This document shows positions 90-5,864 of a stretch of DNA of 5,864 nt, one piece after another. Position 1 is the stretch's first letter; every line of letters begins with the position of its first letter. Below the pieces are notes generated by a model. The model was not told where the DNA came from and ran no database searches. It saw only the letters and a list, made by a program, of their open reading frames with translations. Location of the stretch: IMG/VR virus record IMGVR_UViG_2778261567_000003. The stretch is one strand, 5' to 3'. The stretch comes from a virus (Duplodnaviria > Heunggongvirae > Uroviricota > Caudoviricetes). The position numbers and the translations under genes were made by a program.

Positions 90-311
90 ATGGCTGTATT
101 TAATATTCCTGATATTTACGGACGCTTTTACCTGGTTAATTTCGATAACGTCAAAGCAGTCTCCATGTCTGACAGTGAAGAATGTGGCGATTTACTCTTT
201 GAATTTAATGATCGCACCCGAATGGCAATATCGGCAGGACTTGATCGTGAAGGTGCGAAAGAAGCTTACAGCAATATTTGTCGCTTTATCGGTGCAAGAC
301 GGGTTAGTTAA
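90..311 (+). CDS. hypothetical small early protein (73 aa); occupies the position of kil in Mu, identity unverified
   Basis: ATG at 90 preceded by AGGTG at 79..84; ORF runs to TAA 309..311. An alternative GTG start at 84 overlaps the upstream stop. No recognisable motif. Confidence 0.55.
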   Translation: MAVFNIPDIYGRFYLVNFDNVKAVSMSDSEECGDLLFEFNDRTRMAISAGLDREGAKEAYSNICRFIGARRVS

Positions 312-323
312 ACGAGAGGTTAT

Positions 324-743
324 ATGAAAATGCAGATACAGCAGGAAATCAATGTTCTCCACAGCTTTCGTGAGTTTAACAACAATGACTGTGAGGTTCG
401 TGATTATATCTATGAATTGATGAACGGTGACGGTGTGTGTTTTCTGTTTATCGACCTGTATCAATGGTATGCAGACCAGCAGTGTGAATCTGTCCGGCAG
501 CGTTTTGATTATGAGTGCTTTGATGTGGACGTATGGGAAGGCCTGCGTTTTGGTTTTCTGATCCCGGGTGATTATCGCCGGGAGTGGCGACATAGTTACT
601 CCATTCTTCGGGCAATCATGCGTGGCGAAACCCGAAAAATGCCGGGGATGGGTAAGGTTAATCGCGGCCTCCTGTTAGAGATAGCAGCGGCGCACATGAA
701 TCCATTACTGATACAACCGGAGTTTACTTATGAATTTGTTTGA
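324..743 (+). CDS. hypothetical protein (139 aa)
   Basis: ATG at 324 preceded by GAGAGG at 313..318; aromatic/acidic-rich translation; its 3' end overlaps the next start by 14 nt. Confidence 0.6.
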   Translation: MKMQIQQEINVLHSFREFNNNDCEVRDYIYELMNGDGVCFLFIDLYQWYADQQCESVRQRFDYECFDVDVWEGLRFGFLIPGDYRREWRHSYSILRAIMRGETRKMPGMGKVNRGLLLEIAAAHMNPLLIQPEFTYEFV

Positions 744-1311: not shown

Positions 1312-1605
1312 ATGAGCAAAGTACGCGTTATTTTTGAATTTGAGCATGTTTCGCATGACGAAAAACCGGCAGGCAATGACAGTGTTGAAGTGCATGAAAA
1401 GATTGGAGTGGATGTGAAAACAGAACGTGATACGGATAACAGGCCGACGTCACTCTGTGACGTTTATGCAAGCATTCTCCAGTATCACAGTCCTGTAATT
1501 ATTCAGTTTCTCTCAGCGGAATTTCAGGCATCTGTACAGGCTTTTGGGGCGGATGCCATCATTAAACGCCACCGTGTGCATAAAGCATCAGGCACACTGC
1601 AATAA
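1312..1605 (+). CDS. hypothetical protein (97 aa), paralog 2 of a tandem pair
   Basis: ATG at 1312, 4 nt after the stop of the previous gene, with a G-rich SD (GGGG 1301..1304). N-terminal similarity to 1035..1307 at both protein and DNA level. Confidence 0.6.
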   Translation: MSKVRVIFEFEHVSHDEKPAGNDSVEVHEKIGVDVKTERDTDNRPTSLCDVYASILQYHSPVIIQFLSAEFQASVQAFGADAIIKRHRVHKASGTLQ

Positions 1606-1615
1606 GGAAAACAAA

Positions 1616-2146
1616 ATGGTTAAACGTGTTACAAAATTAAAGGCCGCAGCCGAGGCTGCACCGCAGACCCGCGAAGAAGTCAGCCGCGATATCCGCACCC
1701 TGGGCGATATTCAGCGAGAGGCGCTGCGCCTGGAAACGGCAATGAATGATGAAGTGGCAGAAATCACCGCCCGTTATACGCCGCAGATTGAAAACCTTAA
1801 AAAAGAAATCAAAGTGCTTTTTAAAGGGATTCATGACTGGTGTAAAACCAACCGCAATGAGCTGACGAACGGCGGCGAAACCAAAACTGCCAATCTGACC
1901 ACCGGAACGGTGTCATGGCGGCTGGGAAATCCATCATGCAGCGTCAGTCGTGATGTGGAAGGTGTGATTGAAATGCTGCGTCGTATGGGGCTTGAGCGCT
2001 TCATCCGCACGAAAGAGGAAGTGAATAAGCAAGCTGTCCTGGCAGAGCCGGATGCGGTGAAAGGGATTGCTGGTATTAAGGTGAATAAAGGCGCTGAAAG
2101 TTTTCATGTCGAGCCTTTTGAACAGGACGCCGGACTGAATAAATAA
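1616..2146 (+). CDS. gam: Mu Gam-like host-nuclease inhibitor (Ku-like DNA-end-binding protein), 176 aa
   Basis: ATG at 1616 with AAGGA at 1604..1608. The translation shares long collinear motifs with phage Mu Gam as I recall it (LGDIQREAxRLETxMND, NRxELTNGG, KTANLxTGxVSWR, GLxRFIRTK, PFEQxAG) and is almost the same length (Mu Gam is about 174 aa). Recognition is from memory, not a database hit. Confidence 0.88.
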   Translation: MVKRVTKLKAAAEAAPQTREEVSRDIRTLGDIQREALRLETAMNDEVAEITARYTPQIENLKKEIKVLFKGIHDWCKTNRNELTNGGETKTANLTTGTVSWRLGNPSCSVSRDVEGVIEMLRRMGLERFIRTKEEVNKQAVLAEPDAVKGIAGIKVNKGAESFHVEPFEQDAGLNK

Positions 2147-2812: not shown

Positions 2813-3346
2813 ATGATTGATGCAAAAGTGCTTGAAGGGGTTAAAAACTGGCTGCGTATTTACGGACGTCTGACCTGCGGTGTTCTGGCTGAAAAAATGA
2901 ATATGCCGCCATCCTCCATGGTTTATTTTCTGCGTGATGCGGTTGATGCAGGCGTGCTGACGGAATGTAACGGTTTTTATGATATTCCGCGTCCCCGCCC
3001 GGTGCAGCCGGTTCGTCGCAAATGCAGCCAGGAGTCTGCGGCTGATGATGTTCAGTGGTGCAGCTTCAGAAAATCCCTGCCGTGGATTGAAGGGCATGAT
3101 ATTCCGTCGATGGCGTGGGAATTTGCTCAGGGCGTGCTGACCTGTGAAACCGTTTATGTGGTGGCTGAAGTTGATGAGCAGGCCATGAAAGAAGGCGTGC
3201 CCCAGTTTGTGATGGCGTATATCGACATACGCCTGGGTGTCATTATCTGCGGTTTAAGCGGCTGGAATATCACCTCGCGCGTTCTGCGTTACCTGATTGT
3301 TGACCGGACGGCCGCGCCTGCCGGGATATCAGCGGAGGTGGCGTAA
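2813..3346 (+). CDS. hypothetical protein with N-terminal winged-helix-like DNA-binding region (177 aa)
   Basis: ATG at 2813 with GGAGGA at 2799..2804, 3 nt after the previous stop. The N-terminal ~55 aa (LEGVKNWLRIYGRLTCGVLAEKMNMPPSSMVYFLRDAVDAGVLTE) has the spacing and hydrophobic pattern of a winged HTH; the C-terminal ~110 aa is unrecognised. Confidence 0.7.
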   Translation: MIDAKVLEGVKNWLRIYGRLTCGVLAEKMNMPPSSMVYFLRDAVDAGVLTECNGFYDIPRPRPVQPVRRKCSQESAADDVQWCSFRKSLPWIEGHDIPSMAWEFAQGVLTCETVYVVAEVDEQAMKEGVPQFVMAYIDIRLGVIICGLSGWNITSRVLRYLIVDRTAAPAGISAEVA

Positions 3347-3861
3347 TGTTCTTTAAAACATCAAACCCTTCCGCGCTGGCCGCGTGGCAAAAATACCAGC
3401 AGGACTGCCAGACGGTAAAAGATGAGGCGAAACGCCTTGAGGCCGTGCTGAATGTTGCGTGCCGGTCGGTATTTGAATTCAGTATCAGTGGTTTTTGTTT
3501 TAAGGGACTGCGTTTTACGGAGGACAAATATCCTTTTCATCGTGATTTATGGCGAAAACCAACTGCGTCGAATGGCTGGAGCTGCACACCGCGCACATCA
3601 CGTATTCCCAAAGCCCTGCGCGTTGCCTCTGACGAACTTAACAGTCTGTGGCGTGAATATTCGCCCGTCACGTATGCCAGAACCGATGCACTGTTGTTCT
3701 GGCTGGGCATTGATTTCTCGGCAATCCTGTTTGGCCCTGTGGAGTGGTTCTGCGTTGACGATGTGATTTACCTTCAGTGCGGCGTAAAACCCGCAAAACA
3801 GAAAATGACCGAAATTCTGTCTGATGAGTTTTATGCTGCTGAAAAGCGAGTCAGGGGGTGA
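3346..3861 (+). CDS. hypothetical protein (171 aa)
   Basis: ATG at 3346 overlaps the TAA of the previous gene (TAATG), with GGAGGTG at 3334..3340. No recognisable motif. Confidence 0.65.
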   Translation: MFFKTSNPSALAAWQKYQQDCQTVKDEAKRLEAVLNVACRSVFEFSISGFCFKGLRFTEDKYPFHRDLWRKPTASNGWSCTPRTSRIPKALRVASDELNSLWREYSPVTYARTDALLFWLGIDFSAILFGPVEWFCVDDVIYLQCGVKPAKQKMTEILSDEFYAAEKRVRG

Positions 3862-3864
3862 TGC

Positions 3865-4416
3865 ATGATGATATTACAACCCATGGGGAGAAAAGGCCGT
3901 GCACCCGCTCATGTTCGCGCATGGACACCTGAAGAAGATGCGCTGCTGATTGCGCTTTATCCATCCACCCCGGTTAAGGATATTGCTGTCAGGATAAAAA
4001 GAAGTTTCTGGGGTGTACATAACCGGATTGTTTTATTACGCGGTACTTACCCGGAGTTGCTCAAATGCAAACGCCTCAGATTTAAACCTGATGAAGATAA
4101 ATTTATCCGAAAAAATGCCAGAACAATGACCGGTAAGCAAATAGGAGAATATCTGGGGCGAGACCGGGATTCTGTCCACAATCGGGCGCGATATATTGGC
4201 GTAAGCATGAAAAAATACGGAGAGTTGCTGCCCTTCACCCGTATACCTGACGATGATGTTCATCTTATTCGTGAATTACGGGATGCTGAATCACCACGAC
4301 GTCTTACCTTCCGGGAAATTGGCGAGAAATTTGAATTATCCGAGAGTACGGTGAGTTTTATTTATCACCATCGCCGGACTGCCGAAGATGTTGTATTACG
4401 GGAGTTAATGCCATGA
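3865..4416 (+). CDS. putative DNA-binding protein with three tandem HTH/Myb-like repeats (183 aa)
   Basis: ATG at 3865 (or 3868), 3 nt after the previous stop, G-rich SD 3854..3860. Internal repeats: WTPEEDALLIALYPSTPVKDIAVRIKRSFWGVHNRIVLL / KPDEDKFIRKNARTMTGKQIGEYLGRDRDSVHNRARYIG / IPDDDVHLIRELRDAESPRRLTFREIGEKFELSESTVSFIYHH. Confidence 0.7.
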   Translation: MMILQPMGRKGRAPAHVRAWTPEEDALLIALYPSTPVKDIAVRIKRSFWGVHNRIVLLRGTYPELLKCKRLRFKPDEDKFIRKNARTMTGKQIGEYLGRDRDSVHNRARYIGVSMKKYGELLPFTRIPDDDVHLIRELRDAESPRRLTFREIGEKFELSESTVSFIYHHRRTAEDVVLRELMP

Positions 4417-4529
4417 TAACGACATTATTTGTTGAATCAGATGAACCCCTTGTATGTGCCGCCGGAATGCCGGTCTGTGGCGGAACGCTGACCGGTGTTT
4501 ATTTCGGGGATTTGCGCGGTTATCCCTAG
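4413..4529 (+). CDS. possible micro-ORF (38 aa)
   Basis: ATG at 4413 overlaps the TGA of the previous gene (ATGA); GGAG at 4401..4404 with an 8-nt spacer. Translation MITTLFVESDEPLVCAAGMPVCGGTLTGVYFGDLRGYP. Below the size cut-off of the supplied ORF track; only the RBS and coupling geometry support it. Confidence 0.3.
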   Translation: MITTLFVESDEPLVCAAGMPVCGGTLTGVYFGDLRGYP

Positions 4530-4559
4530 CATTCACTGGATGACGCATTTCCGCCTGAT

Positions 4560-4745
4560 ATGGAGGCTGTCGTGCTGATTGTTCAGTATGGTGACCAACA
4601 GGAACTGCGCATCGGCCATATGGGGTATGAAGGCTTTTTTGTTGATGAAGAAACCGGAGCCTGCCTTGAAGATGAAGACGGACAGGTGACGCACTGGTGC
4701 CATATTTCATCTTTACCGGAATTACAGGAGACGCCCAATGGATGA
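4560..4745 (+). CDS. hypothetical small acidic protein (61 aa; may start at GTG 4572)
   Basis: Open frame with ATG at 4560; an internal GGAGG (4562..4566) precedes GTG 4572 and could instead be the RBS for that start. Its 3' end overlaps the next ORF by 8 nt. Confidence 0.45.
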   Translation: MEAVVLIVQYGDQQELRIGHMGYEGFFVDEETGACLEDEDGQVTHWCHISSLPELQETPNG

Positions 4746-4878
4746 TCAAATAGTTGAATGTCCCACCTGTGGAAATGAAGCCCCGGAGTATCTGAAAGAG
4801 TGCCCACATTGTGGTGAGGTAAAATGTAATCACTGCGATATGGGCGACGACACTGCATGTATGAATTGTGAGGATTAA
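4738..4878 (+). CDS. zinc-ribbon-like microprotein, 46 aa with four CxxC motifs
   Basis: ATG at 4738 with AGGAG at 4726..4730. Translation MDDQIVECPTCGNEAPEYLKECPHCGEVKCNHCDMGDDTACMNCED contains CPTC, CPHC, CNHC and CMNC. Not in the supplied ORF track (under 60 aa). Confidence 0.55.
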   Translation: MDDQIVECPTCGNEAPEYLKECPHCGEVKCNHCDMGDDTACMNCED

Positions 4879-4882
4879 TAAT

Positions 4883-5170
4883 ATGGAAAAAGAAATCAAA
4901 TTTGCGCCTATAGATATCGACGAAGAACTGGCTAAAATCGGCATGCCTGAACGTATGCGTGACATTATCGAATATGCGATAAAAGAAAATCTTGGAGCCA
5001 GAGAGGCACTGTCGATAATGGAGCGGGAAATTAATCTGATTAATGAAGCGGTTTCTCTGGAAAACAAAATAGCCCGCGAGGAATACGTTCGCCGCAGGCT
5101 TGGTGTTGATGGTTCAGCAATTCTTACATCTGAACATTATGCAAAAATTTTTAATCTTTTTTCGCGGTAA
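4883..5170 (+). CDS. hypothetical protein (95 aa)
   Basis: ATG at 4883 with GAGGA at 4870..4874; charged, helix-like translation (MEKEIKFAPIDIDEELAKIG...). Looks AT-rich by eye. Confidence 0.6.
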   Translation: MEKEIKFAPIDIDEELAKIGMPERMRDIIEYAIKENLGAREALSIMEREINLINEAVSLENKIAREEYVRRRLGVDGSAILTSEHYAKIFNLFSR

Positions 5171-5390
5171 TGCCCATGCAGGCCCGGAGATTGTCGAAAT
5201 GCCAGTTTGTATTAATATATGAGCCATCCTGGTGTCCCTCTGCGCTTTGGGGTGCGGCACTTTTTTGAGCAATATTGATAATATGTGTTGCCTCCTCACG
5301 GGAAATAACCCCCTTATCGAACAGGGTTACCATAAGATTTCCAGCCATTGTGAATGCGGCAACATCAAGGGCATTTTTTATATCTGACAT
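5151..5390 (-). CDS. hypothetical protein (79 aa) on the opposite strand to the rest of the operon
   Basis: Minus-strand ATG (5388..5390) is preceded by AAGGA with a 7-8 nt spacer. The region has no convincing + strand ORF. The N-terminal ~45 aa look protein-like (MSDIKNALDVAAFTMAGNLMVTLFDKGVISREEATHIINIAQK). Overlaps the 3' end of the + strand gene 4883..5170 by 20 nt. Confidence 0.4.
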   Translation of the reverse strand: MSDIKNALDVAAFTMAGNLMVTLFDKGVISREEATHIINIAQKSAAPQSAEGHQDGSYINTNWHFDNLRACMGITAKKD

Positions 5391-5418
5391 AGATTTTTCC
5401 TTTTATGTTAATTGACAT

Positions 5419-5446
5419 GGCGGTGCGGTAACACCGCCCATTTTTT
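5419..5446 (+). terminator. candidate rho-independent terminator or attenuator hairpin (+ strand)
   Basis: Perfect inverted repeat GGCGGTG (5419..5425) / CACCGCC (5432..5438) with a 6-nt loop, followed 2 nt later by TTTTTT (5441..5446). The stem can extend with a single-base bulge so the T-tract abuts it. On the minus strand the hairpin is followed by GTCAATT, so it is directional. Confidence 0.5.
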
Positions 5447-5460
5447 ATGGAGCCACGATA

Positions 5461-5864
5461 ATGAATCGCGCTTCCCTGATTACCTTAATACATGTCGCAA
5501 AACGCGATCTACAGCTTGACCGGGAGACCTATACATCCGCGCTGCTGGCAGCCACCGGCAAAACCAGCTGCCGGGATATGTCACCGGATGAGTTATCCCG
5601 CGTGCTGGATGTTTTAAAAAAACGCGGTTTTAAAGTGCGCCAGAAGCCGGTTAACCGGGCCTTAAAACCGGGTACGGTGACCGCCAAAATTCGTGCCATC
5701 TGGAAGGTGATGCACCGGCAGGGCTTTATCTCTGATGGTGCGGAAACCGCTCTTAACCGCTGGGTGAAATCGCAGACGGCCGCGCAGAACGGCGGCGAAG
5801 GTGTGGCAAACTGGCAGTGGCTGGAGCAACACCCCGCCCTGGCCTCAGATGTGCTGGAGCGTCT
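5461..5864 (+). CDS. gemA: GemA/gp16-like protein (Mu-like prophage DUF1018 family), 3'-truncated by the window edge
   Basis: ATG at 5461 with GGAG at 5449..5452. Translation MNRASLITLIHVAKRDLQLDRETYTSALLAATGKTSCRDMSPDELSRVLDVLKKRGF... fits my recollection of the GemA/gp16 N-terminal pattern, and its position downstream of gam matches Mu synteny. Open to the end of the window. Confidence 0.72.
   Translation, partial: MNRASLITLIHVAKRDLQLDRETYTSALLAATGKTSCRDMSPDELSRVLDVLKKRGFKVRQKPVNRALKPGTVTAKIRAIWKVMHRQGFISDGAETALNRWVKSQTAAQNGGEGVANWQWLEQHPALASDVLER

Follow-up and report, generated by a model that had tools for sequence, protein, structure and literature searches.

The paradigm of transposable phages, Mu, carries a single leftward gene inside its early operon, and the annotation of this gene is inconsistent. 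RefSeq record NC_000929 places it on the minus strand at 7896..8162 as gp15 (Mup15; NP_050619.1; PHROG 8747; 88 amino acids, aa), in the slot between gp14 (7655-7957) and gemA (from 8233). In the 2022 update of AF083977, gp15 is replaced by a plus-strand open reading frame (ORF) of 55 aa, Mu_54 (7960..8127), and the RefSeq record of D108 leaves the slot empty. A 1991 record of the Mu left end already marked a leftward ORF at this place, and our literature search found no study of Mu gp15. A second point of comparison is offered by the morons, such as bor and lom of lambda or gp15 of HK97, which are independently transcribed accessory genes that are often expressed from the prophage. Here, we analysed a stretch of 5,864 nucleotides (nt) of viral DNA (IMG/VR record IMGVR_UViG_2778261567_000003; hereafter, the window), which contains a 79-codon ORF, orf79, running against the direction of its neighbours. 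Orf79 is very probably a real protein-coding gene and a homolog of Mu gp15. The gene, its candidate ribosome-binding site and the gene that it converges on are:

5151..5390, minus strand: orf79, 79 codons, from the ORF list (ATG 5390-5388, TAA 5153-5151)
5398..5402, minus strand: Shine-Dalgarno-like AAGGA, 7 nt 5' of the orf79 ATG
4883..5170, plus strand: homolog of Mu gp14, 95 aa, PHROG 6075, convergent with orf79 and overlapping it by 20 nt

A first-pass annotation, made from the letters of the window alone, had singled out orf79 as a minus-strand ORF with an AAGGA ribosome-binding site, convergent with the preceding plus-strand gene and located in the only stretch without a credible plus-strand ORF, and all of these points were borne out. 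The minus-strand sequence ahead of the ATG reads ...ACATAAAAGGAAAAATCTATG, and the Shine-Dalgarno position is occupied by AAGGAAA in D108 and the Mu-like lineages L026 and L027, and by GAGGA in Mu and L065. The plus-strand gene terminates 20 nt inside orf79, and the Prokaryotic Genome Annotation Pipeline (PGAP) has placed the gp14 homolog and orf79 at exactly matching relative coordinates in a near-identical E. coli prophage, where the orf79 product is listed as hypothetical protein WP_032204020.1. PGAP calls orf79 in all five E. coli records that we opened, and two hypothetical proteins are recorded under the match in 14 of the 14 matching records. The plus strand of 5171-5460 holds ORFs of only 32, 46 and, at most, 51 aa, two of which start with GTG or TTG.

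The length of orf79 is not above chance, given that longer antisense shadow ORFs occur in the same window (4405..5067, 220 aa; 192..593, 133 aa). What lifts it above chance is an excess of synonymous changes in its own frame, together with intact copies, a match to a protein family, motifs that are kept in homologs, and nucleotide skew. For the selection test, we aligned 15 copies, representing 11 haplotypes, taken from IMG/VR and from complete genomes of E. coli; the orf79 frame is open in every one of them. In the non-overlapping part of this frame, the main haplotypes differ by 12.5 synonymous and 12.5 non-synonymous changes, which corresponds to a ratio of non-synonymous to synonymous divergence (pN/pS) of 0.27 (binomial p=0.003). 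The gp14 homolog yields comparable values in the same haplotype comparisons (pN/pS 0.16-0.23), and the remaining five frames range from 0.6 to 1.9, none of them significant. Within the gene, a patch of 28 nt (5233-5260) has accumulated 19 substitutions between the two main haplotypes with no insertion or deletion, altering KSAAPQSAEGH to KNSTPENAEE(I/D) in a predicted flexible linker; recombination could have left this tract, or diversifying selection may act on it. Across 5100-5400, the AT skew is reversed and the GC skew is close to zero, as expected for a gene on the opposite strand.

Homologs of the 79-aa product were found at several distances. Along its entire length, orf79 matches PHROG 32893 (E 2.4e-40), and a search of 1.8 billion representative proteins returned relatives of 67-85 aa with 29-42% identity. 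Two motifs are kept in these distant homologs: FDxAAFxxAGNxLxxLxxKGxxSxxEA in the N-terminal part and, in the C-terminal part, WHLDNLxA, for which orf79 has WHFDNLRA. Two scans of species-representative genomes recovered no homolog of orf79.

The remote match to Mu gp15 becomes visible when profiles are compared. While pairwise BLASTP of orf79 against Mu gp15 gave no match, Mu gp15 itself hits PHROG 32893 (E 5.9e-4), and hhalign links it to orf79 with a probability of 92.9% (E 3.8e-7). Both genes lie between gp14 and gemA, on the strand opposite to the early operon, with their 3' ends overlapping gp14; both have the same palindrome arms 28-30 nt upstream of their ATG and a terminator-like hairpin antisense within gp14, and both encode a small, acidic, helical protein. 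Their N-termini align from the start codons (YDVAGYAIASALVRLLVKKAIITAEEGKAI against LDVAAFTMAGNLMVTLFDKGVISREEATHI), and the N-terminal motifs match residue for residue. In contrast, global identity is only ~17%, the C-terminal WH(L/F)DNL motif that the orf79 branch carries can hardly be made out in Mu gp15, and the two proteins fall into separate PHROGs (32893 and 8747).

The slot that is empty in the D108 record (NC_013594) holds an unannotated minus-strand ORF of 119 aa (7853..8212), located in the 376-nt gap between gene 14 and gemA. It shares slot, orientation and the core motif FxxxxFxLxGNLMxxLxxxGVI...A..II with orf79, and differs by an acidic N-terminal extension of ~30 residues (pI 4.3). 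Hhalign connects the two at a probability of 95% (E 3.6e-8), and the D108 ORF matches PHROG 38610, to which orf79 itself has a weak match (E 0.0014). The same arrangement, with gp14 and gp15 convergent and gemA pointing away, is found in the window, Mu, D108, L026, L027, L062, L065 and Yersinia Muvirus Tongde; gp15 overlaps gp14 by 20 nt in the window and by 4-62 nt elsewhere. The phages that share this slot and orientation include several of metagenomic origin. Judged by these profile and synteny comparisons, PHROGs 8747, 32893 and 38610 are one gp15 family, and orf79 is a diverged new member of this known, uncharacterised family.

These comparisons also bear on the conflicting annotations of Mu and D108, where they support a minus-strand gene. 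Variation among Mu-type sequences amounts to 7 sites, which is too few to choose between gp15 and Mu_54, and we used the comparison of Mu with L065 (66% nucleotide identity) instead. Here, an excess of synonymous changes is present in the minus frame only (p=0.005). In L065, the frame of Mu_54 lacks an ATG, and the window has no counterpart of Mu_54. Because the synonymous excess is restricted to the minus frame and the Mu_54 start codon is absent from L065, the comparative data favour the original minus-strand gp15 over Mu_54.

The product of orf79 has 79 aa, a mass of 8.6 kDa, an isoelectric point (pI) of 5.8 and a grand average of hydropathy (GRAVY) of -0.21. Members of the gp15 family range from 74 to 119 aa, and all are acidic (pI 4.3-5.8) with negative GRAVY values. 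An AlphaFold2 model built from a 12-sequence alignment (mean predicted local distance difference test, pLDDT, 77; predicted template modelling score, pTM, 0.65) places helices at residues 2-25, 31-45 and 62-71; the linker at 46-60 is of low confidence and includes the hypervariable patch. Overall, the prediction is of a small, soluble, acidic protein of three or four helices. Orf79 has no match in Pfam, no hit in PADLOC and nothing below E 0.5 in a sequence search of the PDB, and its sequence contains no hydrophobic or membrane span and no helix-turn-helix (HTH) or other DNA-binding domain that we could find.

Upstream of orf79, the start of gemA faces away from it, and the DNA between and around the two starts is unusually conserved. 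A further element lies beyond the orf79 stop codon, within the gp14 homolog:

5461..5864, plus strand: 5' part of gemA (Pfam GemA, E 3e-25), divergent from orf79 and running out of the window at its end
5419..5438: perfect palindrome GGCGGTG-N6-CACCGCC, between the divergent orf79 and gemA starts
5395..5521: hyper-conserved segment, comprising the divergent intergenic region and the first 20 codons of gemA
5061..5100, minus strand: leftward intrinsic-terminator-like element, in which 5100-5092 pairs with 5079-5071 and is followed by AUUUUGUUUU at 5070-5061

In a set of 13 haplotypes with variation at 12% of positions, the hyper-conserved segment of 127 nt does not vary at a single site, and the invariance includes wobble positions of gemA. 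The Poisson probability of this is ~7e-7, a value that is optimistic given the linkage between sites. The invariance indicates an overlapping regulatory constraint, and we presume the segment to be a regulatory region of orf79 and/or gemA. The palindrome within it lies 28 nt from the orf79 ATG (28-33 nt across lineages) and 22 nt from the gemA ATG (about 22-25 nt across lineages). Its arms are invariant in all Mu-like lineages that we examined, while the surrounding spacer diverges, and it occurs only once in 16 kb of phage DNA. At the sites in Mu, D108, L026, L027, L062 and L065, the arms are identical even where the GemA proteins are only 42-50% identical. The palindrome is situated directly ahead of the ribosome-binding site of gemA, where it could serve as an operator, an RNA 5' hairpin or an attenuator. 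On the plus strand, the palindrome is followed by CATTTTTTAT with a run of six T (5441-5446), which our scan calls a rightward terminator; the corresponding tail in Mu is CCCTTTCC, and the T-run is not conserved. We rejected the palindrome as a sigma-54 promoter by inspection, as the GG-to-GC spacing is 3 nt too short. Likewise rejected as a terminator was a plus-strand hairpin at 5240-5257: of its 18 bases, 7 differ in the second haplotype, and the pairing is not kept there.

The leftward hairpin is located ~50 nt past the orf79 stop codon and consists of a 9-bp, G+C-rich stem and a U-run. Hairpin and U-run are present in all 10 lineage variants, with 97.8% of cells in the alignment paired; the changes comprise four that preserve a wobble pair and one compensatory change from G-C to A-U. 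Mu has an equivalent in AF083977, where TransTermHP reports a 'terminator' inside gene 14 (7839..7873), whose T-tail is on the minus strand. An Rfam search returned nothing relevant.

Taken together, these features suggest the following explanation, which as a whole, with orf79 as a real gene of the gp15 family included, we rate slightly better than even. Orf79 would be transcribed leftward as a monocistronic unit from a promoter within 5395-5521 (placed at 5440-5520), back-to-back with the promoter annotated upstream of gemA in Mu (the 'semi-early promoter' at 8151-8217 of AF083977), and its transcript would end at the hairpin and U-run antisense to gp14. Own ribosome-binding site, conserved spacer and hairpin make such an independent leftward unit reasonably probable. 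Given that orf79 converges on the strong, Pe-driven early operon, most of its expression may come at times of little or no early transcription (the prophage state), whereas colliding transcription and sense-antisense pairing would dampen it in lytic growth; we regard this prophage bias as plausible, if somewhat short of even. We hold with similar reserve that the product is an accessory factor that binds a host or phage protein partner rather than DNA or the membrane, a role that size, charge and fold make preferable to the other two. For Mu, the title of Paolozzi and Ghelardini (1992; reference 71 of PMC3820752) states that the gem operon is constitutively expressed and causes lysogenic conversion.

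Several observations weigh against this explanation. A scan for the sigma-70 consensus found no promoter on the minus strand of 5391-5610, nor within 200 nt upstream of the gene in any of six lineages, and scans of both strands gave nothing that was positionally conserved; given that the annotated Mu promoter upstream of gemA was missed by the same scans, this negative result carries little weight. The covariation in the hairpin is not significant (83 of 500 shuffles reach the observed value), the stem of one haplotype contains an A.C mismatch, and the stem encodes a conserved gp14 peptide, AREE..RRRLG, so that coding constraint alone could preserve it. Binding to a protein partner is derived from size, charge and predicted fold, and structure searches of the PDB with the orf79 model returned generic helical bundles only. 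In addition, gp15 is missing from L052 and L064, and several database copies are frameshifted in the second half of orf79.

The frameshifted copies fall into five database clusters, in which the first 43-52 residues of orf79 are common before the frame switches. Three of the clusters (P0008, P0009 and P0010) carry a 1-nt insertion or deletion at the same site:

5261..5266, minus strand: A6 run of the coding strand (A7 in the second haplotype), the site of +1/-1 frameshifts

In cluster P0006, GG is inserted in the G-run 5249-5252, and cluster P0007 has lost 1 nt near 5230. Together, these are ~6 member sequences compared with roughly 66 intact ones. The first-pass annotation had reasoned that frameshifts in relatives would speak for a non-coding region; frameshifts do occur, in a minority of copies only, and those copies lack the C-terminal motif that distant homologs have kept and look defective. 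Because this motif is lost, we take them for errors or for damaged alleles of an accessory gene, not for a sign of non-coding DNA. One assembly with a frameshifted orf79, VOFK01002175, contains several further split genes, which points to sequencing errors there; frameshifts outside this assembly may be real. An alternative minus-strand frame at 5114-5299 is open for 61 codons, and the frameshift alleles thus encode proteins of 88-92 aa with an unrelated, basic, cysteine-containing tail. We assumed the open frame to be due to chance, with slippage at the A6/A7 run as the other possibility. The longer variants were rejected as the true form of the protein, given that the WHLDNL motif of the 79-aa frame is conserved in distant homologs.

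The conserved palindrome raises the question of whether gp15 could be a small transcription regulator that binds it and controls itself and/or gemA-mor, and with it the switch from early to middle transcription. The setting would suit such a role and would match the classic pairing of a divergent regulator gene with its operator: the gp15 and gemA starts diverge and lie 70 nt apart with a perfect 7-6-7 palindrome between them, unique in the phage DNA searched and at a near-constant distance from the gp15 ATG in every lineage, and the 127 surrounding nt do not vary among haplotypes. However, the arms stay identical while gp15 diverges to 20-30% identity, where an operator and its regulator would be expected to co-vary, and the palindrome persists beside gemA in L052 and L064, which have no gp15. 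It therefore belongs to gemA at least as much as to gp15. The family is also uniformly acidic, and no HTH or other DNA-binding domain was found; we consider a regulator improbable.

We are equally sceptical that the leftward RNA is the main product and the peptide secondary. Such an RNA would run antisense to the early transcript and to gp14 at its 3' end, and could attenuate or process that transcript before gemA-mor and thereby time the middle genes. The convergent overlap, the terminator embedded antisense in gp14, the plus-strand hairpin with T-run directly before gemA in this phage, and the fact that gp14 and gp15 travel as one module could all be accommodated by this model. Selection, however, acts on the protein: the synonymous excess is frame-specific, and peptide motifs are kept at 29-42% identity whereas the nucleotides are not. 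The T-run after the palindrome is replaced by a different tail in Mu, and no Rfam family matches.

The joint behaviour of gp14 and gp15 is best seen in comparisons of closely related phages. Among Mu, D108 and L062, the GemA proteins are 95-97% identical, gp14 35-57% and gp15 20-30%, with gp15 always diverging faster than gp14. Because both proteins diverge beside near-identical GemA, gp14 and gp15 are exchanged jointly as a mosaic module with its right boundary at the palindrome. In the Mu-type prophage L052 (1770-1816), gp15 was lost by a deletion of ~200 nt between short CTGAT/TTGAT repeats, and gp14, palindrome and gemA were retained. In L064 (IMGVR_UViG_3300045988_125570, ~3450-3980), sequence unrelated to gp14 and gp15 directly precedes palindrome and gemA, which suggests that the variable module has been replaced or has suffered a larger loss. 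These two absences, together with the frameshifted copies, imply that gp15 is not essential. The window-type allele is rare, being present in 14 of 5,426 complete E. coli genomes and in 9 IMG/VR contigs, and the G+C content of orf79 (0.42) is not atypical when compared with 0.41-0.45 in the upstream genes. Twice, and independently, the insertion sequence IS1 has entered the 70-nt spacer between gp15 and gemA in E. coli genomes, at positions equivalent to ~5428 and 5400 of the window (L013, ~3328-4094; L014, from ~3300); behind the IS1 copy of L014, a large deletion extends as far as the tail genes.

A functional pair of gp14 and gp15, similar to a toxin-antitoxin system or acting in abortive infection or exclusion and diversified by an arms race, might be replaced in just this way. 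The two genes are exchanged together between phages with near-identical GemA, they are convergent, overlapping and structurally interlocked, and the faster divergence of gp15 is consistent. Yet neither protein matches PADLOC or a named Pfam family, frameshifted gp15 alleles coexist with intact gp14, and the clean loss of gp15 from L052, which keeps gp14, argues against gp15 as an antidote that gp14 needs; we find such a pair no more probable than the regulator or the antisense RNA. Least probable by a clear measure is that orf79 is a chance shadow ORF in a non-coding spacer that carries a plus-strand terminator or promoter upstream of gemA. In its favour, the window is rich in long antisense ORFs, two plus-strand terminator-like hairpins lie within 5240-5447, some database copies are frameshifted, and the 2022 update of AF083977, with Mu_54 in place of gp15, implies something similar. 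Against it, purifying selection is specific to the minus frame both among window haplotypes and in the comparison of Mu with L065, both halves of the protein are conserved across the family, profile-profile comparison ties the Mu, D108 and window alleles together, Mu_54 has no counterpart in the window and none with an ATG in L065, and the other haplotype does not preserve the hairpin at 5240-5257.

With orf79 read as a member of the gp15 family, its resemblance to a moron, the role proposed for it in the first-pass annotation, is partial. Like a moron, it is a small gene against the flow of the operon with its own ribosome-binding site and a leftward terminator-like element, and it occupies an accessory hot spot of high variability, where some relatives do without the gene and others show it in decay. 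Unlike a moron, it is not a sporadic insertion: a homolog occupies the same site and orientation as Mu gp15 in every major Mu-like lineage that we examined, and is absent only through the deletion in L052 and the larger loss in L064. Moreover, its base composition matches that of its neighbours. The sigma-70 consensus scan recognised no promoter of its own, and failed on the annotated gemA promoter of Mu as well. The further suggestion of a toxin, immunity or exclusion factor found nothing in its favour, as the PADLOC and Pfam searches were negative and the protein is acidic and soluble with no membrane segment.

The immediate significance of orf79 is modest, as it encodes a small uncharacterised protein of a family that was already catalogued. 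Nevertheless, gp14 and gp15 form the most variable module beside the conserved gemA-mor control region, and this makes the locus a target for asking what Mu-like prophages express besides their repressor and how the transition from early to middle transcription is insulated. A more far-reaching reading, which we consider unlikely but worth stating, is that the junction of gp14, gp15, palindrome and gemA constitutes a conserved regulatory node of transposable phages, at which a prophage-expressed, fast-evolving leftward gp15, convergent on the early operon, would gate early transcription into gemA-mor, with gp15 itself being a diversifying host-interaction or anti-defence factor. If so, the 2022 update of the Mu reference dropped a functional gene.

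The window represents the early (semi-essential) part of a Mu-like prophage of E. coli. One of its plus-strand genes matches Mu Gam:

1544-2146, plus strand: match to Mu Gam

Other plus-strand matches are to DUF5420, the Gp11 C-terminal domain, PHROG 2314 (relatives of this gene are matched by Pfam Phage_Mu_Gp12), an HTH protein, a zinc-ribbon peptide and PHROG 6075, followed by GemA; the PHROG 6075 gene was identified as the gp14 homolog by alignment to Mu gp14. A prophage of E. coli NCCP 13963 is 99.8% identical to the window over 4868-5470, and has transposase genes upstream and mor and lysis genes downstream. An early gene of 110 aa (4413-4745), which is intact in relatives, carries a TGG-to-TGA change at 4528 (W39*; stop codon 4527-4529) in the window. 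This nonsense change splits it into ORFs of 38 and 61 aa, and indicates at least slight decay of this prophage copy. A protein of 46 aa (4738-4878) has cysteines spaced as CxxC...CxxC...CxxC...CxxC with weak zinc-ribbon matches, and it matches PHROG 5584 as well as the C-terminus of a 231-aa family, PHROG 6418.

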